A program made the position numbers and the translations under genes. Positions 251-36,936 of a stretch of DNA of 64,000 nucleotides are shown in pieces; the first letter of the stretch is position 1; each line of letters opens with the position of its first letter. Under the pieces are notes generated by a model. The model was not told the origin of the DNA and did no database searches. It saw only the letters and a list, made by a program, of their open reading frames with translations. The stretch comes from Alicyclobacillus sp. (GTDB lineage Bacteria > Bacillota > Bacilli > Alicyclobacillales > Alicyclobacillaceae): contig JAIMBT010000019.1 in the NCBI GenBank assembly GCA_023511295.1, positions 4,241-68,240 of the forward strand, given 5' to 3'.

Positions 251-1850
251 AGCGGGCGCTCGCAGTCTCCCGGGCCCCAGCTTGCATCTCTTCGACGGCG
301 ACGGTGTGCTCCTTGGTGCGCAGTCCACTGCGGATACCCCAGCCGTAGAATGCGAGCGACGTCACAGCCACCACCACCATATCCCAGCCGTAGGGAATCA
401 CGTTCCGGCCGCCGAACGCCCGGCTGCCGAAAAGGGACAGCACAATCATCCAGACGAGGTAGGCGACGAGCCAGAGTCCCGACTTCCACTGCGCCGCGAA
501 GCCGCGCCACCGGCCCTTTGCCTGGTAGTACAGGTACAGCGGCAAGCCGACCAGCATGACGAAGATCACCTCGCCCGTAAGCGGCCAACGGGCCCAGTAG
601 AGGATGAGTGAGGCCATTACGAACGCCGCCGGCGCCAAGACGTTCATCCCTCGAATCCGCAGCGGTCTCGGCAGGTCGGGCGCGGTTTTGCGAAGCGCCA
701 TCGCAGCCACCGGACCGGTCACGTACGAGACGAGCGTCGCCACGGAAACCACCCCGGCCAATTGTCCCCAGCCCCGGAACATGAACAGAAAGAAGAAGCC
801 GAGCACAAGGTTGAGCCACATCGCGCGGCGCGGGATACCGAAGCGCGGGTGAATTCGGCCGAGCGCTGCCGGGAACCAGCCGTTTTCGGTCATACCGAAC
901 ACCATCCGTGCCGTGGACGCGGTGTACGTGATTCCGGTTCCGGACGGACTGACGAACGCGTCCGCAAACAGCACAATCGCCAACCAGTTGAGGCCGAGAG
1001 AGACAGCGAGATCAGCAAACGGCGAGTTGAGTGAGATGCCGGACCAACCGTGGGACAGCATGCCAGGTTGAACCGCGCCGATGAACCCAAACTGCAAGCC
1101 GAGGTAGATGATCCCGGAGATGAGAATGGACCCGACCACCGCAAAGGGGACGGATCGGTTCGGGTTCTTCGCCTCGCCGGCAAAGTTCACAGGACTCTGG
1201 AAGCCGTTGAAGGCGAACACCACGCCGGACGTCGCAATGGCCGTGAGGACACTGGACCATCCGTAGGGTGCAAAACCGCCCGCCCGATGAAAGTTGCCGG
1301 GATGGAAACCAGCCCAGATGAGCGCGATGGCGGTCGTCGCCGGAATCACCAACTTGAGCAGCGTGATGAGCGTGTTCACGCGCGCGAACAGTTGAATCGT
1401 CCAGTAGTTGATGAGGAAGTAAGCGACAACCAGCACTCCCGCCAAGGCCAGGCCGAGTGCGGTCAGGGAATCGCCGGTGTACAGCTGGTGCACCCAGGCT
1501 GGAACCCAGTGCCACGGCCACGAGCTCATGTACTGAATGGATGCTTCGGCTTCAATCGGGATTACCGATACGATGGCAATCCAGTTGGCCCACCCGGCGA
1601 TAAAGCCGGCGAGGGAGCCGTGGGAGTGTTGCGCGAAGCGTACCGCTCCGCCAGACTCCGGGAACGTAGCGCCGAGTTCGGCGTACACGAGCGCGATGAG
1701 GATGATGGCCGCCATGCCAATGACCCACGCCAGCAGCGCAGCGGGACCACTCACCTTGGCAGCCTTCCACGCGCCGAACAGCCAGCCGGACCCGATGATG
1801 GAGCCGACGCCCGTCATGGTGAGAGCCAGTGTTCCGAGTTTCTTCTGCAT
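249..1850 (-). CDS. Amino acid permease (APC superfamily)
   Basis: Track ORF 249..1940 trimmed to ATG 1848-1850. N-terminus MQKKLGTLALTMTGVGSIIGSGWLFG is typical of APC transporters. The protein is hydrophobic and multi-TM throughout. Confidence 0.9.
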   Translation of the reverse strand: MQKKLGTLALTMTGVGSIIGSGWLFGAWKAAKVSGPAALLAWVIGMAAIILIALVYAELGATFPESGGAVRFAQHSHGSLAGFIAGWANWIAIVSVIPIEAEASIQYMSSWPWHWVPAWVHQLYTGDSLTALGLALAGVLVVAYFLINYWTIQLFARVNTLITLLKLVIPATTAIALIWAGFHPGNFHRAGGFAPYGWSSVLTAIATSGVVFAFNGFQSPVNFAGEAKNPNRSVPFAVVGSILISGIIYLGLQFGFIGAVQPGMLSHGWSGISLNSPFADLAVSLGLNWLAIVLFADAFVSPSGTGITYTASTARMVFGMTENGWFPAALGRIHPRFGIPRRAMWLNLVLGFFFLFMFRGWGQLAGVVSVATLVSYVTGPVAAMALRKTAPDLPRPLRIRGMNVLAPAAFVMASLILYWARWPLTGEVIFVMLVGLPLYLYYQAKGRWRGFAAQWKSGLWLVAYLVWMIVLSLFGSRAFGGRNVIPYGWDMVVVAVTSLAFYGWGIRSGLRTKEHTVAVEEMQAGARETASAR

Positions 1851-2114
1851 GTGACGGATTCGCCTCCCATCGCATCGACAACGGCGCCGATGGCGCCCGA
1901 TGTGTCTGAATGTGATCTTTCCATAATGCGGGATGCACAAATTTGTATGAAATGTTTCATGCTAGGTTAGTATAATCCGCGGCGGGTGGCTCAAGCTAGT
2001 ATCAACGATTGCCAGTGCGCTGCGGGTCGTTCCCATCCGTCTACCCACCGAAGCGGCTAAATAGATAAAATGTTATGTAGATTCTGCAGATGCGTAGACC
2101 CACTCTCCGCAGCT

Positions 2115-2123
2115 TGCTATAAT
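2115..2123 (+). promoter_or_regulatory. Extended -10 element TGCTATAAT, candidate promoter for the RidA/PCD/AbgB-like genes
   Basis: Exact TGnTATAAT match about 130 nt upstream of ATG 2254. No good -35. Confidence 0.35.
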
Positions 2124-2253
2124 TTTCTGCGTACGTCCCCCGTCTCTGCTTGTGGACGCTTCTCGCCACGATGGTCTGTGCCTGCGCGACGGGGGACTTC
2201 TCGGTTCGCTGCACGCGAGACGACTTGTGACACCGTTTACCTTTCGAGGAGGG

Positions 2254-2652
2254 ATGGCGTTGAAACGCAGGATTGCGACCGACCGGGCGCCGCAGCCTGC
2301 CGGTCCGTATTCGCAGGGAATTCAGGTCGGCAATCGGATTTACGTCGCTGGACAGCGACCGGCTGACCCGGTCACCGGCCGGATTGTCGGGGACACGGTC
2401 GAAGAACAGACGCGCCAAGTGCTGTTGAACATTCAGGCCGTGTTGGAGGCGGCGGGAGCCCGTTTGGACGATGTCGTGAAGAGCACGGTGCACCTCGCTG
2501 ATCTCGGCGACTTCGACGCGTTCAACCGCGTCTACGAGACCTTCTTCACGGAGCCGTATCCAGTGCGCACAACCGTCCAGAGTGTGCTGCGCGGCATTAA
2601 GGTCGAGATGGACGTGATTGCAGAAGTCGATGGGCCGGCGGATGGAGCGTGA
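2254..2652 (+). CDS. ridA: RidA/YjgF/UK114-family reactive intermediate deaminase
   Basis: Track ORF trimmed to ATG 2254, preceded by GAGGAGGG. Sequence MALKRRIATDRAPQPAGPYSQGIQVGNRIYVAGQ...VKSTVHLADL...RTTVQ is characteristic of the family. Confidence 0.9.
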   Translation: MALKRRIATDRAPQPAGPYSQGIQVGNRIYVAGQRPADPVTGRIVGDTVEEQTRQVLLNIQAVLEAAGARLDDVVKSTVHLADLGDFDAFNRVYETFFTEPYPVRTTVQSVLRGIKVEMDVIAEVDGPADGA

Positions 2653-2957
2653 CCGGGGTGAGTGAACGCCTCACGGAGGAACAGGTCGCAGAGGCGCTGA
2701 CGCGGTTGCCGAATTGGAAGTTGGAGGGTAAGCAGATCTATCGACGCTACGCCTTTCCTTCGTTCCCTGCGGCGATAGCGTTTGTCAACCAGGTTGCGCA
2801 ACTTGCAGAATCGTGGAACCATCACCCGTTTATCCAGATTGACTTCAAGTACGTGGTGCTCCGGCTCACCTCCTGGCATGCCGGAGGTCTCACCATGAAG
2901 GATTTCGACGAGGCGCAGGCGTTCGACGCGGTGTACGACGAAACCTGGCCGTCATAG
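2649..2957 (+). CDS. Pterin-4a-carbinolamine dehydratase (PCD/DCoH family)
   Basis: 102 aa. GTG 2649 overlaps the RidA stop (GTGA). The motif ...FVNQVAQLAESWNHHPFIQIDFKYVVLRLTSW... is typical of PCD. Confidence 0.85.
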   Translation: MTGVSERLTEEQVAEALTRLPNWKLEGKQIYRRYAFPSFPAAIAFVNQVAQLAESWNHHPFIQIDFKYVVLRLTSWHAGGLTMKDFDEAQAFDAVYDETWPS

Positions 2958-3029
2958 GGCCCGGGGTGTTTGTCGTGCAGGTTCCGTCTGAGGTGTCAAA
3001 CCATCCCGTCAGCGGGGGAGGAACGGCTC

Positions 3030-4463
3030 GTGGAGCATGCGATGAAGATGTCGGACACAGATTATCGGCTGGAATTGGCGGCGTTGATTGAGAGTCGGCG
3101 GGAGACGTTTACCGACCTGAGTGATCACATCTGGGATTTGGCGGAGACGCGGTTTGAGGAGTTCCAATCCGCGGAATTGCTGTGTCAGGCGCTGGAGGCC
3201 GAAGGGTTCCACGTCGAGCGCGGTGTCGGCGGGATGGAAACCGCGTTCATCGGGCAATATGGCAGCGGTTCGCCGGTCATCGCCATCCTCGGCGAGTTTG
3301 ACGCACTGAGTGGATTGAGTCAGAAACCGGGTGTCACGGCGAAAGATCCGCTGGAGCCCGGCGGCAACGGTCACGGTTGCGGGCACAACCTGCTGGGAAC
3401 GGGCGCTCTCGCCGCCGCGGTGGCCGTGCGCCGGTATATGGAAGCGCACGAATTGCCCGGCACCGTTCGGTACTACGGCTGCCCGGGCGAAGAAGGCGGG
3501 TCCGGCAAGGCGTTCATGGCGCGCGCAGGGCTGTTCGACGACATCGACGTCTGTTTCACGTGGCACCCCGCGTGGGTGAACGGGATTATGGAAGCCAGTT
3601 CACTCGCCAACTACCAGGTCTACTTCAAATTTCACGGGGTCAGCTCACACGCGGCTGGCTCGCCGCATCTTGGGCGCAGCGCCCTCGACGCGGTGGAGTT
3701 GATGAACGTTGGCGTCAATTACCTGCGCGAACACGTCATCCCGGAGGCGCGGATGCACTACGCGGTGACCAACAGCGGCGGGCGTTCGCCGAACGTGGTG
3801 CAGTCGGAGGCCGAAGTGCTGTACCTACTGCGGGCGCCAAAGGTTTCACAGGTCGAAGAGATCTACCAGCGGGTGTGCGACATCGCCCGCGGTGCGGCGC
3901 TGATGACAGGCACGCAGGTTGACATCGTCTTCGACAAGGCGTGTTCAAACCTTGTCCCGAACCGAACGCTGGAGCAGGTGATGCACCGCCATTTCACAGC
4001 GCTCGGCCTGCCCGAGTACACGCCGGAGGAGGAGGCGTTTGCGCAAGGACTGGTCGACAGCCTATCGGAACAGGAGCGCAGGGTGATCTCCGCCGTTGCG
4101 CCGGATCTGATGGGCAAGGGCATCGCAGACGGAATCCGCCCGCTGGACGGACCGCCCCGTGGCGGGAAGGGGTCCACCGACGTTGGCGACGTGAGCTGGA
4201 TTGCACCCACCGCGCAGTGCCAGACGGCAACCTGGGCCGTCGGCACGCCCGGCCACTCGTGGCAGGTGGTGACCATCGGCAAGACGTCCATCGCGCACAA
4301 GGGCATGCTCCAGGCCGCCAAGGTGATTGCGGCGTCTGCCGTTGAGGTGCTGACCAACCCGGAGATTGTCGAGACCGCCAAGGCCGAGTTGCGGGAACGG
4401 CTGAACGGTGCATCGTACGTCTGTCCCATTCCGCCGGACGTTCAACCTTCCGCGGTGAAGTGA
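3030..4463 (+). CDS. abgB: M20-family amidohydrolase, AbgB-like (p-aminobenzoyl-glutamate hydrolase subunit B family)
   Basis: Strong resemblance along the length to E. coli AbgB as I recall it (IWDLAETRFEEF, GEFDALSGLSQ, GHGCGHNLLGT, YGCPGEEGGSGK, STDVGDVSW). Start set at GTG 3030, 7 nt after GGGGGAGGA. ATG 3042 is the alternative. Confidence 0.85.
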   Translation: MEHAMKMSDTDYRLELAALIESRRETFTDLSDHIWDLAETRFEEFQSAELLCQALEAEGFHVERGVGGMETAFIGQYGSGSPVIAILGEFDALSGLSQKPGVTAKDPLEPGGNGHGCGHNLLGTGALAAAVAVRRYMEAHELPGTVRYYGCPGEEGGSGKAFMARAGLFDDIDVCFTWHPAWVNGIMEASSLANYQVYFKFHGVSSHAAGSPHLGRSALDAVELMNVGVNYLREHVIPEARMHYAVTNSGGRSPNVVQSEAEVLYLLRAPKVSQVEEIYQRVCDIARGAALMTGTQVDIVFDKACSNLVPNRTLEQVMHRHFTALGLPEYTPEEEAFAQGLVDSLSEQERRVISAVAPDLMGKGIADGIRPLDGPPRGGKGSTDVGDVSWIAPTAQCQTATWAVGTPGHSWQVVTIGKTSIAHKGMLQAAKVIAASAVEVLTNPEIVETAKAELRERLNGASYVCPIPPDVQPSAVK

Positions 4464-4471
4464 CCCGGAGC

Positions 4472-4698
4472 ATCGTCCACGCAGGCTGTCCACAGGGTTA
4501 TCCACCGAGTTGCCCACAGCAAGTTGTGGACAACTCGGGGAACGCCTGGTTGCTGTGAGATTCCTGCTTTTCGAAGCGATGTCGGCGGGACTCGGCTGTG
4601 TACAAATTGGGGATAAACACCCGGGTTATCCACAGAATCCGCCGGTTCTGCACAACCTGTGCACACGGTTTCCACAGGTTTTGCACCGATTGTGCAGA
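4472..4698. promoter_or_regulatory. Cluster of about 11 DnaA-box-like 9-mers, including one perfect TTATCCACA and a 5-unit array with 11-bp period
   Basis: Boxes read directly from the sequence (coordinates in the findings). They fill the 258-bp intergenic gap between 4463 and 4722. Confidence 0.55.
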
Positions 4699-4721
4699 AG
4701 GTCCTTGGGGAGGCGCGAACC

Positions 4722-5354
4722 GTGCAACGGTCGTTGTTTCGGGAATTTGCAACGTTTCCGGACATCCTGGTGATGACCGGACTGTCTGTCTGCGGTTGGG
4801 TGTTCACGTTTTGGCACGCGCCGGATGGACGGGTCTGGGTCGGGCTGGTGGCGGGGATGGCCGCGTACGCTGTGATGGAGTACGTGACGCACCGGTTTCT
4901 CTTTCATCGGAAACCGCCGAAGCGTGCGTGGCTCCAGCGGTTTCTGAAGCGGATTCACTACGACCACCACGTGGACCCAAGCAATCTGAAACTGCTGTTC
5001 TTGCCGGTGTGGTACAGCCTTCCCAACATCGCGGCGGCCTCCGCCATCTGTGCACTCGTCACGAGGAGTGGCGTAGCCACAGGTGGGTTCGTGACCGGGA
5101 TTTGCACGTTTTTGCTCTACTACGAGTGGACGCACTATCGAGCTCACCGACCCATCCGTCCCATTACGCCGTGGGGACGCTGGATGAAAAAAGTGCATCT
5201 TTGGCACCACTTCAAGAATGAGAACTACTGGTTCGGCGTCACCCACCCCGGGATGGACGTTCTGCTGGGGACGTGGGCAGACGAGCGCAGCGTGCCGCGC
5301 AGTCAAACCGCAAGAGACCTGGAGCATCGCATGCCCACGGACGTGGATGCATGA
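4722..5354 (+). CDS. Fatty acid hydroxylase / sterol desaturase superfamily membrane di-iron protein
   Basis: Histidine boxes HRFLFH, HYDHH and HLWHH with hydrophobic segments. Start set at GTG 4722, 8 nt after GGGGAGG. The track ORF begins at 4659. Confidence 0.75.
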   Translation: MQRSLFREFATFPDILVMTGLSVCGWVFTFWHAPDGRVWVGLVAGMAAYAVMEYVTHRFLFHRKPPKRAWLQRFLKRIHYDHHVDPSNLKLLFLPVWYSLPNIAAASAICALVTRSGVATGGFVTGICTFLLYYEWTHYRAHRPIRPITPWGRWMKKVHLWHHFKNENYWFGVTHPGMDVLLGTWADERSVPRSQTARDLEHRMPTDVDA

Positions 5355-5462
5355 GGGTGGCTCGCAGGGTGGTCGGCCCCGTGCCGGTGGGTGGCCTTTT
5401 CGGAAAGGCGATCTCGTGGGGCAGAGTGAGAGCAAGATTGGGCAAAGGGAAGAGGGGGCCAT

Positions 5463-7046
5463 ATGAGCGTGTCATTCCAAGGCGGCCGGTCGGCGGATGG
5501 GCAGGGACCCGACGCCGCGGTCGCGGGGGGTGCGGACATCAGCGAGGCGGCGGTTGCACAGGTCTACGAGCGAGCTCGAACATCCGCCGCGATATGGGCG
5601 CGCACGCCGCTGCCCGCACGAATCGCCTGCCTGCGTCGCCTGCGCGAGCGGGTTGTAGACCTGCGAGATGAGATTGCGGATGTCCTCCACGCCGATACCG
5701 GAAAGCCACACGTCGAGGCGCTTGCCACCGAGGTGTTGGTGGTTCTGGAGTCGCTGCAGAGTGTCGAGCGACACGCGGCAAAGTGGCTGAAAACGCAGCG
5801 CGTGCCGACACCCGTCTCGCTGTTCGGCAAACGGTCCTACGTGTCGTACAAACCTCGCGGCACCGTCCTCGTGATTGCACCGTGGAACTTCCCCTTCCAA
5901 CTTTCGATGATCCCGGTGGTGGAGGCGCTGGCTGCCGGAAACAGCGTTATCCTCAAGCCTTCCGAAGTGGCTCCTCAGGTGGCGTCGACGATGGCGGCTC
6001 TGTTTCGCGATGTCCTCCCAGATGTGCACCTGGTGCAGGTGGTGACGGGGGGACCTGAGACCGGCGCTCGACTGGTGGCGGCTGGGCCGGACTTCATCCA
6101 CTTCACAGGGTCTGTCCGCGGGGGGAAGGCCGTTCAGCGGGCGGCGGCGGAGCAGTTGATTCCAACGAACCTGGAACTCGGGGGCAAGGACCCGATGCTG
6201 GTGTTCGCGGACGCTCCGCTGGAGCGGGCCGTGCATGGTGCGCTGTGGGGCGGACTCTGCAACTGCGGCCAGGTCTGCATGTCGGTCGAAAGGCTGTACG
6301 TGGAACGCCCCATCTATGCGTCGTTCGTCAACGCTCTCGTCCGGGAAGCGGCGCGCCTGCGCGGACCACACCTGGATGGAAACGGCGCGGACGGACGAGC
6401 CCTCGCCCCCGACGAAGTCGACATCGGCCCGCTGACCACCGTGGCGCAGTGGCAGACGGTTCGTCGCCACGTGTCACAGGCGTTGTCAGCCGGCGCGAAG
6501 TTACGGCTTGGCAACCCGCCTGAGCTGTGGGATGTGCGGCAGCGGACGGTCGTGCCCATGATTGTGACCGACGTCCCAGCGGATGTCGATCTGATGCAGG
6601 AGGAAACCTTCGGACCGGTCCTACCGGTGGTCCCTTTCGACTCAGAAGAGGAGGCGGTGCGCCTCGCCAACGGGTCTCGTTTTGGCCTCAGCGCGAGCGT
6701 CTGGACGTCGGACCTGGAACGCGGTCGGCGGGTGGCCGAACAGCTGCAGGCAGGGAGTGTATGCATCAACGACGTCATGCTGGCGATTGCGAACCCGAAC
6801 CTGCCATTTGGCGGGGTGAAGGAAGGGGGCATCGGCCGCTATCACGGCGCCGAAGGGCTGCGAGCGTTCTCGATTCAGACATCTGTCGTCCAGTCTTCTC
6901 CGAGCAATCGCCGCGAGGTGAACTGGTTCCCCTACGCGGGAAAGCGTCCCGTGCTATCTGCCCTCATCCGTGACGGTTACGGGCGACGCCGCAACTGGGC
7001 AGGCTTCGTGAAAGCGTACCTGGCCTTGCTTCGGTTGTCCAGGTAG
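5463..7046 (+). CDS. Aldehyde dehydrogenase family protein
   Basis: 527 aa. Motifs VIAPWNFPF, ELGGKDP and catalytic-Cys region CNCGQVCMSVERLYV. ATG is preceded by AGAGGGGG. Confidence 0.9.
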   Translation: MSVSFQGGRSADGQGPDAAVAGGADISEAAVAQVYERARTSAAIWARTPLPARIACLRRLRERVVDLRDEIADVLHADTGKPHVEALATEVLVVLESLQSVERHAAKWLKTQRVPTPVSLFGKRSYVSYKPRGTVLVIAPWNFPFQLSMIPVVEALAAGNSVILKPSEVAPQVASTMAALFRDVLPDVHLVQVVTGGPETGARLVAAGPDFIHFTGSVRGGKAVQRAAAEQLIPTNLELGGKDPMLVFADAPLERAVHGALWGGLCNCGQVCMSVERLYVERPIYASFVNALVREAARLRGPHLDGNGADGRALAPDEVDIGPLTTVAQWQTVRRHVSQALSAGAKLRLGNPPELWDVRQRTVVPMIVTDVPADVDLMQEETFGPVLPVVPFDSEEEAVRLANGSRFGLSASVWTSDLERGRRVAEQLQAGSVCINDVMLAIANPNLPFGGVKEGGIGRYHGAEGLRAFSIQTSVVQSSPSNRREVNWFPYAGKRPVLSALIRDGYGRRRNWAGFVKAYLALLRLSR

Positions 7047-7062
7047 TTGGTGAGCGCTCCTG

Positions 7063-7740
7063 TCAGGGCTGGCCCGCCCCGTCCGGCCAGATGAGGACGT
7101 ACACTGCGGCTGGCCCGTGCACGCCGATGGTCTGGTCGTTTTCGATGTCCGACGAACGGCTGGGTCCGGTGATGAAGTGGATGGAAGCGGGCAGTACCGG
7201 TTTCCGCTGGGCGAGTTCCTCCAAGACTTCTCCCATCCGATGGCGGAGCTGAGACGTGCGCAGGAGGACGACGTGCACTGGGGGCAGGACCGCGACCGAG
7301 CGGCCGCGCTCAGGGCTGCTCTCCATCACGATGGTCCCGGTGCCCGCGACAGCGAAGGCACAGCCTGTGATGGCCACATCCACGTGCGCGAACGCGTCGG
7401 TCCCGCCGTCGCCCCAGCGGATCCACTCGTACGGCGCCAGCACGCTGTTCAATCCCATCTCCTGGACGAAGTTGCCGCCCCAAGTGCCGATGCGGCGCGG
7501 CTGCCACTGGGCGAGCAGGTCGTGCAACTTCGTCCGTAGGTCTGCAAGCGAGCTGCAGGACACGGCCATGCCGCCGACCTGTTCCAGTTCACGGGCGAAC
7601 CGCTCCGCTGGCGCGTAGGCGTGCGCGGCAGGATTGCGCCAGAAATCTGGCGCACCGATCTCCATTCTGTGCGGCGGTACCGTCGGCTGCGGGCGACCAA
7701 GGCGCTCGGAGATACGGCGCAGGAAGTCCGCCTCACGCAT
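7063..7740 (-). CDS. lutC: Lactate utilization protein C (LUD/YkgG family)
   Basis: Track ORF trimmed to ATG 7738-7740 (MREADFLRRISERLGR...). It overlaps the lutB stop by 8 nt. LutC-like length and sequence, last gene of the lutABC order. Confidence 0.85.
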   Translation of the reverse strand: MREADFLRRISERLGRPQPTVPPHRMEIGAPDFWRNPAAHAYAPAERFARELEQVGGMAVSCSSLADLRTKLHDLLAQWQPRRIGTWGGNFVQEMGLNSVLAPYEWIRWGDGGTDAFAHVDVAITGCAFAVAGTGTIVMESSPERGRSVAVLPPVHVVLLRTSQLRHRMGEVLEELAQRKPVLPASIHFITGPSRSSDIENDQTIGVHGPAAVYVLIWPDGAGQP

Positions 7741-9217
7741 CGCGGGTTCCCTCCTCTTGCCTTCGCGCGTCGCCATCCTCCGATGTTCTTGATCCGCCAC
7801 TGGGCCCGTGGAGCGTCTGCCGCAGTTCACCCCAACGCGCACGGAACGACCGGGGGGCCACCGCCGGGGCGTAGCGAGTGGCTGTCCACGCGCTGAGCGG
7901 ACCGACGCCGTTCGCAATGCCGCCGTCCTGAACGAGTGGGCGCTGCAGGACCCGTGCTGTGCCAAACGCCAGACGGTAACGCCGGTGGTTGGCGAAGGCC
8001 ACGCGGTAGGCATGGAAAGCGGATTTTTCCAGCGCGGGCGTCCTGCCGGTTGCAGCCCGCCGTTGGCGGAGCCGAACGAGCATGTCGTGCAGCGGGATCT
8101 TGACGGGGCACGCTTCGGCGCACGCACCGCAGAGGCTGGAAGCGTAGGGCAGGTCCGCATACGTCTCGTCCTGTTGGAGCAACGGCGTCAACACAGCGCC
8201 AATCGGCCCCGGGTAGACGGACCCGTAAGCATGCCCCCCTATCTGCCGGTAGACAGGGCAGACGTTGAGACAGGCGCCGCAGCGGATACAGTGCAGGACG
8301 GCCTGAAAGTGCGGGTCTCCGAGTTGACGGGATCGGCCGTTGTCCAACACCACGACGTGCAGCTCCTCAGGGCCGTCGAGGTCCCCTCGCCTTCGCGGGC
8401 CCGTGATCATCGACAGGTAAGCGGTCAGCGGCTGACCCGTGGCGCTACGCGGCAACAGGTTGGCGAACACCTCGAGGTCCTCGAGCGTGGGCAGCAGGCG
8501 CTCCATCCCCATCAGGACGATGTGCGTCTTCGGCAGGTTCGCGACCATGTCTGCATTACCCTCGTTCGTAAACAGGACCACGGTCCCCGTTTCGGCAATC
8601 CCGAAGTTGCACCCCGTGATGCCGATGTCCGCGGCCAGGAACTTCTGGCGAAGGCGCTGCCGGGCGAATCCGGCGAGGGTCTTGGTGTCGGTCGTGAGCT
8701 GCTCGCCCCCGGCCGCTGTGAACAGGTCGCGGATCTGCGCGCGGGTTTTGTGAATCGCCGGGATGATGATGTGCGACGGGGTCTCGTTCGCCAATTGAAC
8801 GATGTATTCGCCAAGGTCCGTTTCCACGACTTCTATCCCCGCGTTCTGCAGGTGGTGGTTGATGTGAACCTCCTCGGAGACCATCGACTTGGACTTCACG
8901 ACGGAACGCGCACCTTTGCCGCGCGCGATGGACAGCACCACCTCGACCGCTTCCGCCGCATCGGATGCGAAATGCACATGGCCGCCGGCTTGGCGCACGC
9001 GGTCCGCGAACTGGGCGAGGTAGGAGTCCAGGTTGGCAATGGTATGGGCCCGGATGGCCTGACCGCGTTCGCGCCAGGATTCCCAGTTGCCGAGTTGCTC
9101 CGTGCTCACCTGCTTCTTGCCTCTCAACCGGTCGGCGGTGAACCGCACCGCCTGGCGCAGGAAGTCGTCCTCCAGGGCGCTTTGAGCTCGCTCCGAGATG
9201 CCGCTTTGTGCCGTCAT
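7733..9217 (-). CDS. lutB: Lactate utilization iron-sulfur protein B
   Basis: Trimmed to ATG 9215-9217 (MTAQSGISERAQ...). Two ferredoxin-type Cys clusters (CIRCGACLNVCP, CGACAEACP). ATGA overlap with lutA. Confidence 0.9.
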   Translation of the reverse strand: MTAQSGISERAQSALEDDFLRQAVRFTADRLRGKKQVSTEQLGNWESWRERGQAIRAHTIANLDSYLAQFADRVRQAGGHVHFASDAAEAVEVVLSIARGKGARSVVKSKSMVSEEVHINHHLQNAGIEVVETDLGEYIVQLANETPSHIIIPAIHKTRAQIRDLFTAAGGEQLTTDTKTLAGFARQRLRQKFLAADIGITGCNFGIAETGTVVLFTNEGNADMVANLPKTHIVLMGMERLLPTLEDLEVFANLLPRSATGQPLTAYLSMITGPRRRGDLDGPEELHVVVLDNGRSRQLGDPHFQAVLHCIRCGACLNVCPVYRQIGGHAYGSVYPGPIGAVLTPLLQQDETYADLPYASSLCGACAEACPVKIPLHDMLVRLRQRRAATGRTPALEKSAFHAYRVAFANHRRYRLAFGTARVLQRPLVQDGGIANGVGPLSAWTATRYAPAVAPRSFRARWGELRQTLHGPSGGSRTSEDGDARRQEEGTRDA

Positions 9218-9966
9218 TGTGTGACCCCGCTTTCGTCGGCCGCTTGCATGCCTTCCCACAGCAGCTCGGCCAAGTGCAGGACGCGAACGGGTTGTCCCAA
9301 CTTGCGCAGCCGACCTCCGATGTTCATCAGACAACCCATGTCTGTGCCGACGAGCACCTCGGCGCCTGTGGCGCACACGTGCTCCACCTTCTCCGTTACC
9401 ATAGCGCCCGAGATGCCGCCCATCTTGACGGCGAACGTGCCGCCGAATCCGCAGCAATCTTCGGCGTACGGCAGGTCGACCAGTTCGAGGCCTCGCACGG
9501 CTCGCAGCAACTGCAGCGGCTCGTCGCGCACACCGAGCAGCCGGCTTCCGTGGCAGGAGGGGTGGAAGGTGACCCGGTGCGGGAAGTACGCGCCAAGGTC
9601 TGGGCGATTCAGGAGACGCACGAGGAACTGGGAGAATTCGAACGTCTTCGCGGCCACCGCCTCAGCCTGCTCCCGCAGGGCCGGGTCGTCTGCGAACAGG
9701 TCTGCGTACCAATGGCGGATCATACCCGCACACGACCCTGAAGGAGACACGACGACGTCGCTCTCTGCAAACGCGCGCAGCAGCGTCCGCGCAACCTCCC
9801 GCGCCTCGTCTGTGTAACCGCTGTTGAAGGCGGGCTGTCCGCAGCACGTCTGTTCAGGCGGGAAGTCGACCGTCACCCCGCAACGGTCGAGGATACGGAC
9901 CATCGCCTCGCCCACCTGCGGAAAGAATTGATCGACGAGGCAGGTGACAAACAGTGAGGCCTTCAT
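9214..9966 (-). CDS. lutA: Lactate utilization protein A (CCG-domain Fe-S oxidoreductase)
   Basis: Trimmed to ATG 9964-9966 (MKASLFVTCLVDQFFPQVG...). Contains the CCG motifs (TCCGQP, DCCGFGG). Confidence 0.9.
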   Translation of the reverse strand: MKASLFVTCLVDQFFPQVGEAMVRILDRCGVTVDFPPEQTCCGQPAFNSGYTDEAREVARTLLRAFAESDVVVSPSGSCAGMIRHWYADLFADDPALREQAEAVAAKTFEFSQFLVRLLNRPDLGAYFPHRVTFHPSCHGSRLLGVRDEPLQLLRAVRGLELVDLPYAEDCCGFGGTFAVKMGGISGAMVTEKVEHVCATGAEVLVGTDMGCLMNIGGRLRKLGQPVRVLHLAELLWEGMQAADESGVTQ

Positions 9967-11144
9967 CGCTTCGGCACCGCCGTTCGGTTTGTGACGAAAT
10001 CTGGGCCGATATCGGTATATCGGGGGTATCCAGCGAGTGCCATCTCCAGGTCGAGTTCCGCCCGGAGGTGCAACAGCCAGGTCTCGATTGCGGCCGCCCC
10101 GCCGGCAGCCAGTGCGTACGCGTAGGGTCGGCCGATGAGGACGGCGTTTGCGCCGACGGCTTTTGCCTTGAGGATGTCGGCAGCGGTGCGGACGCCGCTG
10201 TCCATCAGGAGCAAGGGCTCTGGGCCGAGGGCTTCGCGGATCTCCGCCAGTGCGTCCAGGGTCGCGACCGCACCGTCCACCTGACGTCCGCCGTGGTTGG
10301 ACACGATGACGCCGTCCGCGCCAGCGTCCAAGGCCATTCGGGCATCCTCCGGGTGGGTGATGCCCTTTATCAACATCGGCAATCGCGTGGTGTTGCGGAT
10401 GCGTCGCAGGTCGGACCAAGTGAATGCGGGGTTGACGTACACGTCGAGGAACGCCTCGACTGCGGCGGCCGGGTCGTCCTCCGGGCGCGTCGCCAGGCGG
10501 GATTGAAAAACTGGATCAGTCCGAAAGTTGGCGATGCCCTCCCCTTGCAGGAAAGGGAGATACGCGTTGCGAAGGTCACTCATCCGCCACCCAAGCATGG
10601 TGGTGTCCACGGTCACCACGAGTGCACCGTAACCGGCCGCCTCCGCGCGGTGGACAAAGCTGTCGACGATGGCGGGGTCCTTTCCCGGATAGAGCTGAAA
10701 CCATCGCGGCGCGTCGCCCATTTCGTGCGCAATCTGCTCCATCGACAGCGAGGAGACGGTGCTGACGATGAACGGGACGCCGTGTCGGGCGGCCACGCGC
10801 GCTGGTGCGGCTTCCGCGTCAGGATGGAGGATGGACTGCACGCCGATGGGCGCGAACAGGAAGGGAAGTGGATAACGGACGCCGAGAAGCTGGATGGACA
10901 GGTCCCGATCTGCGACGTTTCGCAGCATCCGCGGGCGCAGGAACCGTTGCTGGAACGCCCGGCGGTTGCTCGCCATCGTCTCCTCAGCCCCAGCGGCCCC
11001 TTCGAGGTATCCCCATGGGCCCGGCGCCAACGTCTGACGGGCTCGCTCGCGCCACGTCTCCCAGGATAGCGGTTCGTCATACGTCTTGCCTTCCAGCATC
11101 CGGCGGTAGATCTGGAGTTGGGCGTCGAGTCCGTACGTGGTCAT
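9963..11144 (-). CDS. FMN-dependent alpha-hydroxy acid oxidase/dehydrogenase (L-lactate oxidase / lactate 2-monooxygenase-like)
   Basis: Trimmed to ATG 11142-11144 (MTTYGLDAQLQIYRR...). Family motifs are ...VSNHGGRQVDG... and ...LMDSGVRTAADILKA.... ATGA overlap with the lutA start. Confidence 0.85.
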   Translation of the reverse strand: MTTYGLDAQLQIYRRMLEGKTYDEPLSWETWRERARQTLAPGPWGYLEGAAGAEETMASNRRAFQQRFLRPRMLRNVADRDLSIQLLGVRYPLPFLFAPIGVQSILHPDAEAAPARVAARHGVPFIVSTVSSLSMEQIAHEMGDAPRWFQLYPGKDPAIVDSFVHRAEAAGYGALVVTVDTTMLGWRMSDLRNAYLPFLQGEGIANFRTDPVFQSRLATRPEDDPAAAVEAFLDVYVNPAFTWSDLRRIRNTTRLPMLIKGITHPEDARMALDAGADGVIVSNHGGRQVDGAVATLDALAEIREALGPEPLLLMDSGVRTAADILKAKAVGANAVLIGRPYAYALAAGGAAAIETWLLHLRAELDLEMALAGYPRYTDIGPDFVTNRTAVPKR

Positions 11145-11179
11145 TTGGTTCCGCCTCGCATTGCTTCGTATTTTCCAAC

Positions 11180-11188
11180 AATATACCA
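11180..11188 (-). promoter_or_regulatory. Extended -10 element (TGGTATATT on the minus strand), candidate promoter of the lactate operon
   Basis: Reverse complement of AATATACCA, about 36 nt upstream of the start at 11144, in the 67-nt gap after proC. Confidence 0.35.
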
Positions 11189-11211
11189 CAGACGGCGGGG
11201 ATGGGCGGCGG

Positions 11212-12027
11212 TCAGGGTTCGCTGTACATCTGCCCCATTTCGGTGGCGCGCCGCGCAGCAGCCTGAAGAGCATCGTCGACGGTCGCGGCGAGTTGGTGTG
11301 CGGTGAACACCTGCATCCCGGCGTGCGTGGTACCGTTCGGCGAGGTGACGCGGCGGCGGAGTTCGTGTGGACTGAGTCCCCACTCCTCGAGGACGCGGGC
11401 CGTTCCCACCACGGTCTGCAACAGCAGCTTGCGTGCGGTGGATGCGTCGATGCCGAGTCGCACGGCCGCGTCCTCCATGGCCTCCAGGAAGTAGCTCACG
11501 AATCCAGGGCCGCTCCCGGAAAAGGCTGTGGCGGCGTCCATCAAGTGCTCCTCGAGCTCGACCACGATGCCCGTCTGTTCGAGGAGGAAACGGACGTAGG
11601 CGAGGTCGTCGGCGGTAACCACTGGGCTTGCGGACATCGCGGTCGCCCCGGCCAGTACGGCCATCGGTAGGTTCGGCATCGTGCGCACGACCTTGGCTCG
11701 GCCGTCGGTGGCGTCTTCGAGCCAGCGGATGGGGACACCTGCCGCGAACGACAGAAGGACCTGCCCGTCGAGGTACGGCAGCACCTGCGTGATGGCCGCC
11801 TGCGCATCGGCTGGTTTCGCAGCGAGGACGACGACGCGGGCCTGGGCGGCGTCCTCAGGTCGTCCTGGCCGTACGCCGTACTCCGCCTGCAGTTGAGACA
11901 GTCGATCTCGGTTGGAGCGATTCATCACCAGAATGTCAGACGCCGGGACGGCCTCGCGCGAGACCAGGCCGCGGATGAACGCCTCCGCCATGGATCCGGC
12001 GCCGAGCAGAAACAGTGAATGTGCCAT
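11212..12027 (-). CDS. proC: Pyrroline-5-carboxylate reductase
   Basis: 271 aa. N-terminal Rossmann motif LFLLGAGSMAEA and the C-terminal ...SPNGTTHAG... signature. RBS GGGAGGGAG. Confidence 0.9.
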   Translation of the reverse strand: MAHSLFLLGAGSMAEAFIRGLVSREAVPASDILVMNRSNRDRLSQLQAEYGVRPGRPEDAAQARVVVLAAKPADAQAAITQVLPYLDGQVLLSFAAGVPIRWLEDATDGRAKVVRTMPNLPMAVLAGATAMSASPVVTADDLAYVRFLLEQTGIVVELEEHLMDAATAFSGSGPGFVSYFLEAMEDAAVRLGIDASTARKLLLQTVVGTARVLEEWGLSPHELRRRVTSPNGTTHAGMQVFTAHQLAATVDDALQAAARRATEMGQMYSEP

Positions 12028-12252
12028 GGAATCTCCCTCCCGCCGGATGATTTGCTCGTGATTTTCTCACGACGAGCGGGGAAAGTCCACCGTGCGGTTA
12101 CGATGATGTGTCTCCGCCGAGTCCTGTCGGTGCACATAGCGGCCGCCGCGGAAAAAGGAGACCACCTAGGCACAATTGCGCCATGCGCTGTATGATATTG
12201 GGGAGCGTTGTCGCGTGTGAGGGGATGAGACGAAAGGCGGAGGGAGCGCGGG

Positions 12253-14457
12253 ATGTACAACCCAGAGGTACACATACAGGAACCGGCGTCTTCGTGGATC
12301 CCCGACCCTGAGCGGACGCGGAGCGTTCTGCGCTCCTCCGGGATAGGGGTGTGGGAACTGAACCTGTGCAGGCTCGATTCCGCATGGACGCCGGAGACCT
12401 TCGAGCTGTTCGGGATGGAGCCGGCGGACCGCCTGGTGGCGTTGCCAGAGATCTTAGCGCGCATCCACCCAGCGGACGTTACGCGGGTGCAGGCAGCGGT
12501 GGATGTCGCCCGGGTGGTCCCAATTGACCTGGAGTACCGGATTCTCCTCGACTGCGGCGCGACGCGGCACGTGCGCTCCAGGATGGTATCGGACGGACGG
12601 CACAGGCCGGGTACCGTGACAGGCATTATCGAGGATATCACGGAACGGCGCACGTTGGAGAGACAACTGCGCGAAGGCCAAGAACGCTACGAGTCACTCA
12701 AGAAGTACAACCCGAACGGGATTTGTTCGTTGGACCTACATGGACAGATCACCGACGCCAACCAGGCCTTTGAGCGCATGACCGGCTACACGCTCGATGA
12801 GTGGCGGTGTCTCCCGCTGTTCAACACGCTTTTTCTGCCACAGGACGCCGAGTGGGCGGAAGCGGCCTTCTTCAATCGCTTGGTCGAGAACGTGGAGACA
12901 AGGGTGCGGCATCGCGACGGGCACACCACCGACGTCGCGGTGACCAGCGTACCAATGGTCGTCGACGGGCGGCGCATCGGCTTCTACATCATGCTGCAGG
13001 ACATTTCACAGCGTAAGCGGGTGGAGTGCGAGTTGCGGACCACGCAGCGGCTCTACCAAATGATCTCGATGAACGCACTCGACGTGATTGCGCGCAGTGA
13101 CGCGAGTGGCAGGGTCATCTACATCTCCCCGTCTGTCACGCCGGTGTTGGGTTACCGACCAGAAGAATTGGTTGGGCAGGAGTTCAGCCACTTGTTCCAT
13201 CCCGAGGACTGGCCAACGGTGGCAGCACTCGGTGAACGCCTCGTCGCAGGGGAGGACGTCGAGCGCTTTACCGCCCGCGTCGTCACCAAGGACGGCGGGC
13301 TACGGTGGTGTGAGACCACCCTGCGCGTCGCGCGAGACCTCTCGGGTCGGTTGCTCGAGGTGGTTGGCGTCAGTCGCGATGTGTCGGAGACCATCCAGTT
13401 GCGCGAGTCGTTCGAACATGCGGCAGAAATCGCACGGCTCGGGCACTGGACCTGGGACGCCGAAACCCACTCCCTGTCCCTGTCCAGGCAGATGTGCGTC
13501 AACCTGGGATTGCCGGCAGAGACCGGTACCTTGACGGCGAAGCGATTGCGCCCCATCGTCCACCCCGAAGACCTGCCCGGCGTCGTGTCGGACTTTCGCG
13601 AAGTCATCCGCGCCGGGGACACGTTTCACCGCGTCCTTCGCGTCCTCCTCCCGGACGGGGCGGTTCGCTACCTCGAGTGTCAAGGCGAAGTGATGCGCGG
13701 CGGTGAAGGCGAGGTGGTTCGCGTCATGGGCACGACACAGGACGTGACGGATCGAAAACAGGCGGAAGAGACCATCATGAAGGCGGAGAAGCTGTCTGCG
13801 GTCGGGCAGTTGGCCGCTGGTATCGCGCACGAAATTCGCAACCCGCTGACAGCGCTCAAGGGATTCACACAGCTCTTGGCCAAGCGGGCAGATACCGATT
13901 CGCAGCGGTACTTCCGCATCATGCAGGACGAGTTGAGTCGGATTGAACGGATTGTGAACGAGATGCTCTTGCTGGCCAAGCCGCAGGCGACGGCCTACCG
14001 GGTCCTCCACCTTCAGCCCCTCGTCGCCGAGGTGGTCGCGCTGCTGGAGCCGGAGGCGCTGATGAACGGTGTCCACGTGCACATTGCAGATGCACCGGCA
14101 TTGCCTCCGGTGGAGGGTGACCCCGGGCAGTTGAAGCAGGTGTGGATCAACATCGTCAAAAACGCCATCGAAGCAATGCCGGGCGGCGGTCACGTCGACG
14201 TGAGGTGCGGCACGGATCCCACGGTTCGTGAAGCATGGGTGGAAGTGGCGGATGACGGGCCGGGGATAGCAGCGGATCGACTTTCGCAACTGGGTACGCC
14301 GTTTTTCTCGACGAAAGAGAAGGGCACGGGGCTCGGCATGATGGTGAGCCGGCGCATCGTCGAGCAGCACGCCGGGCGCCTGGAGGTGCAGAGCGCGGTG
14401 GGGGTCGGGACCACTGTGCGCGTCACCCTGCCCGCCTACCGAGGTACAGGGGCGTAG
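12253..14457 (+). CDS. Multi-PAS sensor histidine kinase, sporulation-kinase (KinA) type, no adjacent response regulator
   Basis: 734 aa. Several PAS-like repeats, then the H-box AGIAHEIRNPLTALKGFTQLL and an HATPase region (N, G1 and G2 boxes: NIVKNAIEAM, DDGPGI, GTGLGM). Confidence 0.9.
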   Translation: MYNPEVHIQEPASSWIPDPERTRSVLRSSGIGVWELNLCRLDSAWTPETFELFGMEPADRLVALPEILARIHPADVTRVQAAVDVARVVPIDLEYRILLDCGATRHVRSRMVSDGRHRPGTVTGIIEDITERRTLERQLREGQERYESLKKYNPNGICSLDLHGQITDANQAFERMTGYTLDEWRCLPLFNTLFLPQDAEWAEAAFFNRLVENVETRVRHRDGHTTDVAVTSVPMVVDGRRIGFYIMLQDISQRKRVECELRTTQRLYQMISMNALDVIARSDASGRVIYISPSVTPVLGYRPEELVGQEFSHLFHPEDWPTVAALGERLVAGEDVERFTARVVTKDGGLRWCETTLRVARDLSGRLLEVVGVSRDVSETIQLRESFEHAAEIARLGHWTWDAETHSLSLSRQMCVNLGLPAETGTLTAKRLRPIVHPEDLPGVVSDFREVIRAGDTFHRVLRVLLPDGAVRYLECQGEVMRGGEGEVVRVMGTTQDVTDRKQAEETIMKAEKLSAVGQLAAGIAHEIRNPLTALKGFTQLLAKRADTDSQRYFRIMQDELSRIERIVNEMLLLAKPQATAYRVLHLQPLVAEVVALLEPEALMNGVHVHIADAPALPPVEGDPGQLKQVWINIVKNAIEAMPGGGHVDVRCGTDPTVREAWVEVADDGPGIAADRLSQLGTPFFSTKEKGTGLGMMVSRRIVEQHAGRLEVQSAVGVGTTVRVTLPAYRGTGA

Positions 14458-16040
14458 CCGAACGCGTCCCGTAACGCCTTGTCCTTGCGCGCAATCACCT
14501 GGTCGATGGTTTCAATGTAGGCCTTTGGCTCGCGCGGGTTGGGGACGCGGCCATAGATCTTGCCGCCTGGGCCAATCAGTTTCGTGACCGCTCCGCCCCC
14601 AATTCCGACGATGGTCTGGCGCTCTTCCATGATGCAGACGTTGTAGATGCCTTCCTTCCCCGGCTCTGCAAACCCCACGTTCTCCATGTTGCCGAGGATG
14701 TCCCGCTGGCGGTAGGCGTAGTACGGGCGGTAGCCCTGCGCTGCCGCCCAGGCGTGCGCCTCCTCCACCATCTGGCGGATTTCCGGCGACTCGGCGATGA
14801 CAAATTGGTCGCGTTCCGTCTTGACGACGGCGGACCGCTTCAGCGCCAGCGTGTGGACGGTGACACTTTCGGGGTGCAGCCGCTCGAGGCGCTCCAAGGT
14901 GTAGCGCACGTCGTCGATGGTCTCGCCCGGGAGTCCGATGATCAGGTCCATGTTGATGTTGTCGAAGCCAGCGGATCGAACGTGATGGAACCGGCGGTCC
15001 ACCATGTCGGGCGTATGCCCGCGCCGGATCTCCCGAAGCGTGCTGGCTTTGAAGGTCTGCGGGTTGACGCTGATGCGGTCGACGCCGTAGCGCTTCATCA
15101 CCTGGACGCGGTCCGGCGTGATGGTGTCTGGTCGCCCCGCTTCGACGGTGAATTCGCGCCATGCGCCTGGGTTTGGGATCTCGCGAAACATCGTGTCGAG
15201 CAGCCGGTCGAGTTCCGCTGCACGCAGGCTCGTCGGGGTTCCGCCGCCGAGGTACACGGTGGTCACAGGCAGGTTGTGCTCGCGCAGAAAGGTGCCGAGA
15301 TGCTGCAGCTCCCGCTCCATCGCCTGGAGGAACCCATCCACATAGTGCGCTTTGTCGACCATGGAGTAGGCCGGGAAGGTGCAGTATGCGCAGTGCGTGG
15401 GACAGAACGGAATCCCCACGTAGACGCTCACTTCCCGGTCCAGATGGTACAGGTCTGGTACAATCTCTCGCTCCACCTGGGCGATGCGGGCCATCAACTC
15501 GGCTCGGTCGGCACGTACCTCATAGGCCTCTTGCAGATAGCGTTGCAGTTCCAGCCGTTCACTTTGGGTCAGCGCTCGACCCGTGGCGGCCCCCGGTTGG
15601 GCTTTCTCCCACTCCTCCAACCAGCGATGCGCCACCTTCAGCGGCCGAATGCCCGTGAGGATCCCCCACGGTTGGCCCGCACCGCTGTACGTTCGGAACA
15701 ACTGGTGCAGGACGTGCGTCACCACACGTTTACCAAGGCGACGAAGGGTGGTCTCATCCGCGTCGGCCGGTGTGCGCACGCTGTGGTTGGCGGACAGCAC
15801 CTCGTCCTGGGGCTGGCCGTCCGATGCACCACGTACGAGTGTTCCATGCGCCGAAACCGAATCGCTGGTCCGGCGCAAACAAACGGTTGCGTGCAGGCCC
15901 CCTGGCTCAACCGGTGCATCTTCCGTGGTGGGTGAATCCGGCGAATGAAGCGAAACGCGTGCGCCCTCCCAGAACAGCTGCACCATCTCCGTGACCTCTC
16001 TCGGATAACTGAACCCGTCCATTGTCACCTGTACGTGCAT
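14436..16040 (-). CDS. hemZ: Radical SAM coproporphyrinogen dehydrogenase-like protein, HemZ type
   Basis: 534 aa. Radical-SAM motif GIPFCPTHCAYCTF follows a long N-terminal extension, as in HemZ rather than HemN. The 3' end overlaps the kinase 3' end by 22 nt. Confidence 0.75.
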   Translation of the reverse strand: MHVQVTMDGFSYPREVTEMVQLFWEGARVSLHSPDSPTTEDAPVEPGGLHATVCLRRTSDSVSAHGTLVRGASDGQPQDEVLSANHSVRTPADADETTLRRLGKRVVTHVLHQLFRTYSGAGQPWGILTGIRPLKVAHRWLEEWEKAQPGAATGRALTQSERLELQRYLQEAYEVRADRAELMARIAQVEREIVPDLYHLDREVSVYVGIPFCPTHCAYCTFPAYSMVDKAHYVDGFLQAMERELQHLGTFLREHNLPVTTVYLGGGTPTSLRAAELDRLLDTMFREIPNPGAWREFTVEAGRPDTITPDRVQVMKRYGVDRISVNPQTFKASTLREIRRGHTPDMVDRRFHHVRSAGFDNINMDLIIGLPGETIDDVRYTLERLERLHPESVTVHTLALKRSAVVKTERDQFVIAESPEIRQMVEEAHAWAAAQGYRPYYAYRQRDILGNMENVGFAEPGKEGIYNVCIMEERQTIVGIGGGAVTKLIGPGGKIYGRVPNPREPKAYIETIDQVIARKDKALRDAFGYAPVPR

Positions 16041-16158
16041 GTGCGTCCTGCCTCCACTTCACGTTGTTCCGCCCCGTGCTTGAGGCACTCCTTCCAGTAT
16101 GCCATAGCGGGGGCGGACCTGCCCATCTGTGCGTTGCTGGGAGGTTCATGGTCGGGGC

Positions 16159-16195
16159 AAAAAAAGATGGGAGAAGGGACCCCGTCCCTTCTCCC
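16159..16195 (-). terminator. Rho-independent terminator of the sugar ABC operon
   Basis: On the minus strand, a 12-bp perfect stem GGGAGAAGGGAC/GTCCCTTCTCCC with a 3-nt loop is followed within a few nt by T7 (A7 at 16159-16165 on plus). It lies 14 nt after the stop at 16209. Confidence 0.8.
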
Positions 16196-16208
16196 AAAGG
16201 AATACCGT

Positions 16209-17558: not shown

Positions 17559-17671
17559 AACGATACCCCCTCGTACGTTCAAAATTCCCGTTGCGTTGGT
17601 CGGATACACTCCCGTAGTTCCCCGGTACCGATCCACCTCCTTTTTGACAGCCAACTGGAATGGCTTCGGAC

Positions 17672-18493: not shown

Positions 18494-18533
18494 GGAGCTT
18501 CATCTCCTCCCAAGTATCCTTGTCGGCTCTGGC

Positions 18534-19448: not shown

Positions 19449-19458
19449 GCGCCTCACC

Positions 19459-36932: not shown

Positions 36933-36936
36933 GAAA

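Follow-up and report, generated by a model that had tools for sequence, protein, structure and literature searches.

A putative non-origin DnaA-box cluster upstream of fatty-acid-hydroxylase and aldehyde-dehydrogenase genes in an uncultured Alicyclobacillus

Genomic context and box content of the gap

In the window (the whole 64-kb stretch of DNA that was analyzed, with a GC content of approximately 62%), a gap of approximately 230 bp that is rich in DnaA boxes (positions 4473-4698) lies between two metabolic genes, flanked by a stop codon at 4463 and a start codon at 4722. The upstream neighbor, a gene for an M20/AbgB-like amidohydrolase (3042-4463), is located on the plus strand, as are the two downstream genes, which encode a FA_hydroxylase (PF04116) family protein (4722-5354) and an aldehyde dehydrogenase (ALDH; 5463-7046). 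The hydroxylase gene has a Shine-Dalgarno sequence, GGGGAGG, at 4707-4713, which begins 8 nt past the final box of a phased array at 4646-4698, and a GTG start codon at 4722-4724. An independent gene call, as well as homologues of 202-219 amino acids that align from residue 1, backed this start. The flanks described in an earlier sequence-only reading of the locus (AbgB-like stop at 4463, Shine-Dalgarno sequence approximately 8 nt after the array, GTG start at 4722) were correct.

The window originates from a MAG of an uncultured Alicyclobacillus sp. Proteins of this MAG are deposited at NCBI under accessions MCL6454302, MCL6454303, and MCL6454338; the latter two, from an 83-kb contig, match the ALDH and the MFS protein of the window exactly. 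Positions 1512-17046 were recovered, at 99.97% identity, in the Logan assembly of sequencing run SRR15214128, and positions 2335-6632 in that of run SRR15214126. These two independent assemblies showed zero differences within the gap, so its sequence is not a product of misassembly.

No canonical terminator was found after the M20 gene and, in a promoter scan and a lenient scan of both strands, no sigma-A promoter was found in the gap or in a second cluster described below. A candidate sigma-H promoter in the gap was rejected by eye because its spacing was 15 nt rather than 11-12 nt. Similarly, the TGCAC-N6-TGCA period of the phased array mimics the -24/-12 elements of a sigma-54 promoter, but inspection by eye showed that the invariant GG was missing in all registers. 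In the absence of a recognizable promoter or M20 terminator, the downstream genes may be transcribed by read-through from upstream or from an unrecognized promoter. No tRNA genes were found.

The gap contains approximately 13 DnaA-box words. Re-reading of the sequence located all eleven words listed in the sequence-only reading where that reading had placed them; its list was incomplete, however, as two further words, TCGTCCACG at 4473 (plus strand) and TTGTACACA at 4597 (minus strand), were also present. The first four words (TCGTCCACG, CTGTCCACA, TTATCCACC, and TTGCCCACA, starting at 4473, 4486, 4498, and 4510, respectively) form a plus-strand sub-array at 4473-4518, in one orientation and with a 13/12/12-bp period. 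[quoted passage not shown] The inverted box that follows at 4525-4533 (TGTGGACAA, reading TTGTCCACA on the minus strand) scored 12.7 bits and, together with the 4510 box, makes a 14-nt inverted repeat (4505-4518 and 4525-4538). The form TTGTCCACA is a perfect box of the kind typical for high-GC genomes. A box-free spacer of 63 bp (4534-4596), with neither a promoter match nor an AT-rich stretch, separates this group from a pair of minus-orientation boxes, 2 bp apart, at 4597-4616 (TTGTACACA and TTATCCCCA; 10.5 and 10.4 bits, respectively). The second box of this pair, at 4608-4616, reads TGGGGATAA on the plus strand, and the pair is oriented away from a perfect, high-affinity DnaA box, TTATCCACA, located at 4626-4634 on the plus strand and scoring 14.2 of a possible 14.24 bits.

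In the same orientation as this perfect box, and beginning with a site 11 bp 3' of it, five weak DnaA-box words occupy positions 4646-4698 of the plus strand: TTCTGCACA (4646), CTGTGCACA (4657), GTTTCCACA (4668), TTTTGCACC (4679), and TTGTGCAGA (4690), with PSSM scores of 6.9, 7.6, 8.6, 4.0, and 4.3 bits, respectively. Their exact 11-bp period, which leaves 2-bp gaps between the words, had been reported in the sequence-only reading and holds in both coordinates and spacing. Low-affinity DnaA arrays are recognized by at least four same-orientation sites with 2-bp gaps and by an adjoining high-affinity anchor box; here, the sites number five and TTATCCACA at 4626-4634 occupies the place of the anchor.

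A second cluster, at 47930-48157, is situated 43 kb from the first; its neighbors are an orphan histidine-kinase gene on one side and a gene for an MFS_2 transporter on the other. Its first part (47930-47996, minus strand) consists of five boxes, including a perfect TTATCCACA and TTGTCCACA, while its second part (48133-48157) is a perfect inverted pair, TTGTGGACAA-N7-TTGTCCACAA, that falls within the MFS_2 coding sequence, at codons 6-14 counted from its start at 48116. In total, this cluster holds four perfect and three near-perfect boxes. The sequence-only reading had described one box-rich gap, which is correct for 4473-4698 but overlooked this second cluster.

When 20 sites from both clusters were aligned, positions 1, 2, 4, and 6-9 each carried 1.4-2.1 bits, position 3 carried 0.3 bits, position 5 carried 0.8 bits, and the flanks carried at most 0.7 bits. 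Judged from this profile, the motif is that of DnaA specificity, TTnTnCACA, i.e., TTATNCACA, with the A/G wobble at position 3 of high-GC genomes. For position 5, the affinity order for DnaA is C > A = G > T (PMC2533591). Positions 2, 4, 6, and 7 are invariant among the phased words, four of which have G at position 5, where the other 15 boxes of the alignment mostly have C. Because the phased words thus deviate mainly at a position that is N in the consensus, they qualify as weak DnaA boxes rather than as a separate motif. A GntR-type palindrome (TTGTnnACAA) was considered and rejected, since an A follows the box in only 6 of the 20 sites and several boxes begin with TTAT.

Statistical evaluation and comparison with other loci

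Words within one mismatch of TTATCCACA occurred 21 times in the window, versus 4.8 ± 2.2 times in shuffled sequences, none of which (out of 100) reached 21. Exact copies of TTNTNCACA numbered 13 in 64 kb, and 10 of these fell inside two patches of approximately 250 bp. At up to one mismatch, TTNTNCACA gave 16 strand readings in the 4473-4698 cluster, versus 1.45 per kb elsewhere in the window. A criterion that had been developed for DnaA-box clusters (DBCs) of B. subtilis, based on four successive boxes with at most one mismatch to TTATNCACA and a value of A > 0.3, singled out in that organism exactly the eight regions that are stably bound by DnaA in vivo (PMC2533591). In the gap, A was 0.84 (4597-4654), versus a maximum of 0.019 across 200 simulated sequences, and in the second cluster it was 0.62.

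The PSSM was constructed from the Smith and Grossman counts for 150 experimentally bound B. subtilis boxes (S3 Table, PMC4447404), and its threshold of 7.5 bits was set to the published box density on 0.95 Mb of low-GC Bacillota DNA. At this threshold, the window-wide density was 0.89 boxes per kb. Counted per 300 bp, 9 boxes were found at the 4473-4698 gap, 7 at the second cluster, and at most 3 elsewhere, so that a weight matrix of the kind that the sequence-only reading had proposed for a whole-genome scan identified the gap as an outlier in the window. The consensus counts, the A value, and the PSSM for B. subtilis DnaA all bore out the claim of that reading that the box cluster is not a product of chance.

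The phased words were also evaluated as a set. Each of the five scored at least 4.0 bits, a value within the highest 0.3% among all 9-mers of the window. In 60 simulated sequences, the best five-site phased set had a minimum score of -3.0 bits, and every other such set in the window had a minimum that was not positive. The window contains a single phased T[GC]CAC[AC] array, at 4646-4698. The anatomy of the gap and its statistical singularity are matters of direct observation.

A scan of 121 unrelated Bacillota loci, comprising 1.09 Mb and fetched for comparison, supplied an unplanned positive control. A exceeded 0.3 in two of these loci only (L007 and L032), in both cases in a region 5' of rlmH (SPOUT methyltransferase, yydA) that adjoins htrA-like and walJ-like genes. 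This arrangement is that of DBC[yydA-yycS], a classical and conserved DBC of B. subtilis. Over a megabase of DNA, the scan thus picked up a real DBC and no other region. The two control DBCs had A values of 0.80 and 0.75, versus 0.84 for the gap, and 7 PSSM boxes, versus 9; by consensus counts, too, the gap equaled or surpassed this DBC.

Homologues of the flanking proteins were searched for in GTDB genomes, JGI metagenomes, and a collection of 5.8 billion proteins. With proteins of the same strain set aside, the best homologues showed 63% (hydroxylase) and 72% (amidohydrolase) identity. The cluster was not found 5' of the orthologous hydroxylase gene in approximately 125 loci of distant Bacillota. 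Effusibacillus pohliae has the same hydroxylase-ALDH gene pair, with an ordinary TTGATA-N17-TATAAT promoter upstream of the hydroxylase gene, a palindromic operator (CTGACTAGTCAG) between the two hexamers, and a single TTATGCACA as the only such word in the upstream region. Absence of the cluster from distant relatives suggested a lineage-specific acquisition rather than a conserved regulatory feature of the hydroxylase/ALDH operon. Two loci (L127 and L128) carry a mini-cluster 3' of the hydroxylase gene whose A value is slightly under the threshold. A functional tie of DnaA boxes to the hydroxylase gene was considered but proved unsupported, since the clusters near this gene in Rummeliibacillus are the classical yydA DBC.

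With two clusters in 64 kb, versus 8 per 4.2 Mb in B. subtilis, the window represents either a DBC-rich, perhaps oriC-proximal, region or part of a genome with unusually many DnaA sites, although this high density could also mean that such words are numerous in the genome for some other reason.

Interpretation of the cluster and alternative explanations

Based on its sequence, the 4473-4698 region is probably a non-origin DBC that is bound cooperatively by DnaA, a reading to which we assign a probability of approximately 0.7. Binding of DnaA at these positions in vivo appears likely. The main alternative concerns the 11-bp array. Exact 11-bp phasing of a hexamer in direct repeat is typical of the OmpR/PhoB family of response regulators, and the consensus hexamer of B. 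subtilis PhoP is TT(A/T/C)ACA. The 4646-4698 array, with its T[G/C]CACA hexamers, might accordingly be the operator of such a regulator, or of another oligomerizing regulator, with the upstream boxes as a separate element. The array shows precisely this phasing, and TGCACA fits the PhoP hexamer at five of its six positions. Moreover, the G at position 5 in four of the five words sets them apart from the other 15 boxes, three of the five score below the 7.5-bit DnaA threshold, and an array of this kind is missing from the second cluster. In each of the five copies, however, G or C takes the place of the second T in the PhoP hexamer, and the conserved columns reach beyond the hexamer on its 5' side, to T2 and T4, exactly like those of a DnaA box. 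Even lenient criteria revealed no -10 element after the array, which therefore cannot be an activator site at the usual position. Furthermore, no response-regulator gene is located near either cluster, where the neighboring histidine kinases are orphans, and the array adjoins, and is in phase with, a perfect DnaA box. Tandem OmpR/PhoB half-sites, which the sequence-only reading had listed among the possible roles of the array, are consequently disfavored by the misfit at the invariant second T, by the missing -10 element and adjacent regulator gene, and by the canonical DnaA boxes around the array; we regard this explanation as improbable.

The three remaining explanations each account for only part of the pattern or conflict with it. 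One holds that the inverted repeats act as RNA elements, with 4505-4538 as a terminator or stabilizer of the M20 transcript and 4646-4699 as a 5'-UTR control element of the hydroxylase gene. Inverted repeats of 14 nt (93%) and 18 nt (89%) are indeed present, and the entire gap folds better than shuffled sequences (z = -3.2). The folding of the entire gap is due to its inverted boxes, and the array can be read as an 18-nt inverted repeat because the TGCA core is self-complementary in four of the five phased words. Positions 4636-4725 alone did not fold significantly better than shuffled sequences (z = -1.8), no U-tract follows the first hairpin, and Rfam gave no match at gathering thresholds and nothing beyond noise hits at E ≤ 10. 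Since hairpins would, in addition, leave the same-orientation boxes at 4473-4518 and the perfect box at 4626 unexplained, a role of the gap as RNA is very improbable. Similarly low is the probability of a non-functional relic, either a locally duplicated 11-12-bp unit that resembles a DnaA box by chance or a copy of a dispersed repeat. Its short tandem structure and its absence from relatives would fit such an origin, but TRF detected only a 1.9-copy trace and the copies vary exactly where DnaA does not read the sequence (position 3 and the spacers) and agree where it does. The same enrichment in boxes recurs at a second gap that is unrelated to the first. No other copy of the gap was found in the window and no match among plasmids, which, together with the TRF result, answers the concern of the sequence-only reading that the 11-bp repeat might belong to a dispersed family.

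The abundance of DnaA boxes, and the presence among them of a low-affinity array in the style of an origin, would also fit a replication origin that is cryptic or secondary, i.e., derived from a plasmid or representing a second oriC. This explanation is largely refuted and has scarcely any probability left: dnaA, dnaN, and rep are absent from the annotated parts of the window, cumulative GC skew climbs monotonically over the window without a switch, and the lowest GC content over 40 bp in the gap is 0.45, so that the gap has no AT-rich unwinding element. DnaA-trio-like or other trinucleotide repeats were not visible in the gap, no similarity to PLSDB plasmids was detected, and the flanking genes are ordinary metabolic ones. 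The sequence-only reading, which had noted that dnaA, dnaN, and an AT-rich stretch were lacking, was therefore right not to regard the gap as an origin.

For the preferred reading of the gap as a non-origin DBC, the layout suggests a mode of action. DnaA would initially fill the strong boxes, i.e., the perfect TTATCCACA at 4626, the TTGTCCACA box at 4525, and the 4597/4608 pair. The combination of a strong box and a weak array with 2-bp gaps at 4626-4698 points to nucleation, presumably at the perfect 4626 box, followed by spreading over 4646-4698: as the level of ATP-DnaA rises, head-to-tail extension across the five weak boxes, whose 2-bp spacing is the one most favorable to cooperativity in origins, would produce a filament that stops 8 nt short of the ribosome-binding site of the hydroxylase/ALDH genes. 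We infer from this layout that occupancy would depend on ATP and that DnaA would act negatively, with the filament obstructing entry of RNA polymerase into the hydroxylase/ALDH genes and expression dropping when DnaA is abundant. Complexes of DnaA with its boxes are able to stop a transcribing polymerase, as occurs at asnC in Escherichia coli. At the same time, the locus may sequester DnaA and thereby influence initiation by titration, as in B. subtilis DBCs.

Among the roles offered in the sequence-only reading, DnaA titration and control of the downstream genes by DnaA are both viable; sequence alone does not separate them, and the two effects are mutually compatible. If DnaA binds, the chances that local repression or a roadblock is a real effect are about even, whereas a measurable effect of titration on initiation is a more tentative proposition. 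Unlikely, in our view, is a role as an origin-style sensor of ATP-DnaA outside the origin that ties operon expression to initiation status or, alternatively, as a Firmicute counterpart of datA. If such a sensor were to exist, an anchor box would load a five-protomer filament ending at the ribosome-binding site of a lipid-modifying hydroxylase/ALDH operon and, together with the second cluster, this could indicate that the DnaA regulon of this Alicyclobacillus lineage is unusually large.

Comparison with known DnaA-box systems

Non-origin DBCs have so far been described mainly from B. subtilis, E. coli (datA, DARS), and Streptomyces. If DnaA binds at 4473-4698, their range would extend to the Alicyclobacillaceae, and the gap would represent an unusually clean natural example, outside an origin, of an anchor box combined with a weak array of 2-bp-spaced sites. 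This regular layout would make it a handy substrate for studies on growth of ATP-DnaA oligomers and on transcription interference.

The spacing of the array resembles that of the low-affinity DnaA-ATP arrays of E. coli oriC (Rozgaja et al., 2011; reviewed in PMC6070618), in which weak sites spaced by 2 bp cannot bind DnaA alone and are filled cooperatively from a strong neighbor (PMC6070618). DnaA of Thermotoga maritima has its optimum at boxes in the same orientation with a 2-bp gap (PMC10316083). The sequence-only reading, which had likened the helical phasing of the array to DnaA-oligomer arrays inside origins, is supported in this respect. As in oriC, the sites in the gap share one orientation and the 2-bp spacing, each of them is off-consensus, and an adjoining high-affinity box could donate DnaA. 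Unlike the oriC arrays, the array lies outside an origin, comprises five sites rather than four, and has its anchor box 11 bp away, while a DUE and sites for IHF or Fis are lacking. Moreover, the oriC arrays stem from E. coli, whereas the host of the present array belongs to the Bacillota, in which low-affinity arrays of the oriC type have not been defined.

Other systems share individual features with the gap. E. coli datA and DARS are likewise non-origin DnaA-box clusters and modulate DnaA availability, but they have defined box layouts with IHF/Fis sites, act on the nucleotide state of DnaA, and show no sequence relationship to the gap. The oriC-proximal clusters of Streptomyces coelicolor (cited in PMC3245932) also combine a high-GC genome with TTGTCCACA-type boxes outside the origin; they belong to another phylum and are known to lie near oriC. 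Operators of the PhoP/OmpR type have hexamer direct repeats with an 11-bp period, as does the array, from which they differ by the misfit at the second position, the lack of a -10 element and a nearby regulator gene, and conservation beyond the hexamer that follows the pattern of a DnaA box.

The closest resemblance is with the DBCs of B. subtilis (Ishikawa et al., 2007, PMC2533591; Okumura et al., 2012, PMC3245932), which stably bind DnaA, repress or activate neighboring genes, and jointly restrain initiation by lowering the amount of available DnaA. Like these, the 4473-4698 cluster is intergenic, is located in a Bacillota genome, and contains a minimum of four boxes in close succession, a perfect TTATCCACA among them. 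Its A value of 0.84 falls within the range of 0.36-1.64 for sites bound in vivo in B. subtilis, and it adjoins the 5' end of a gene, as do the yydA, ywlC, and sda DBCs. It differs from them in its flanking genes, which are unrelated to any of theirs, in its absence from the orthologous hydroxylase locus of distant Bacillota, and in its strictly regular five-site array with 2-bp gaps. Conservation among related genomes holds for some, though not all, DBCs of B. subtilis, and proximity to oriC is typical of such clusters without being obligatory. Non-origin DBCs are expected to be common among Firmicutes (PMC3245932), and the cluster is best filed as an addition to those known from Bacillota rather than as the first member of a new class of element.

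A second putative DnaA-box cluster

A second predicted cluster of DnaA boxes, with an Ishikawa A value of 0.62, was located at 47930-48157, flanked on one side by an orphan histidine-kinase gene (46272-47852) and on the other by the gene for an MFS_2 transporter (48116-49486). Four perfect boxes were present in this cluster, and a perfect inverted box pair, TTGTGGACAA-N7-TTGTCCACAA, lay within codons 1-14 of the transporter gene.

Other features of the window

Tandem repeats were found at 36928-37413, in the gap that separates a gamma-glutamyltranspeptidase gene from one encoding a family-5 solute-binding protein. An 11-bp repeat, GGTAGGATTGC (7.6 copies, 94% match), was immediately followed by 3.1 copies of a 133-bp repeat, throughout which the palindrome GGGAACGCGGTTCC was abundant. 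The arrangement resembles an operator-like palindrome array.

A lower-GC island (GC 0.54-0.56 versus approximately 0.63) at 16000-22000 may have been acquired horizontally. It contained genes for sugar ABC transporters and a SIS-domain gene of MurQ-like appearance, and its right edge coincided with the start of an ECF sigma factor gene (21884-22579).

Comparison of the window with the Logan-assembly contig carrying part of the same sequence revealed four differences, three of which (C>T, G>A, and C>T) fell inside 19 bp (9520-9538), in the FMN-dependent dehydrogenase/LUD-domain gene cluster.

Hydroxylase loci in relatives

Upstream of the hydroxylase-ALDH pair of Effusibacillus pohliae (L126, 4100-4198), a textbook promoter, TTGATA-N17-TATAAT, was found. 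The palindrome CTGACTAGTCAG between its two hexamers suggests that a dedicated repressor acts at this locus.

The relative L127 (60% identity, 56% GC) showed the reversed gene order, with ALDH preceding the hydroxylase. Just downstream of this pair, at 4864-4961, and likewise in L128, was a small group of boxes (TTATCCACG, TTATGCACA, TTATTCACA, ATATTCACA, and again TTATTCACA). Its A value, calculated by hand, was approximately 0.25-0.27, slightly under the threshold (> 0.3), and the group may be a coincidence.

In Rummeliibacillus, a FadR/GntR-family gene was situated immediately upstream of the hydroxylase gene. Classical non-origin DnaA-box clusters upstream of rlmH (yydA) were recovered in both Rummeliibacillus loci, at 7117-7361 in L007 (A = 0.80) and at 11067-11484 in L032 (A = 0.75), 0.5-4.5 kb from the hydroxylase homologue, and served as the positive control for the cluster scan.
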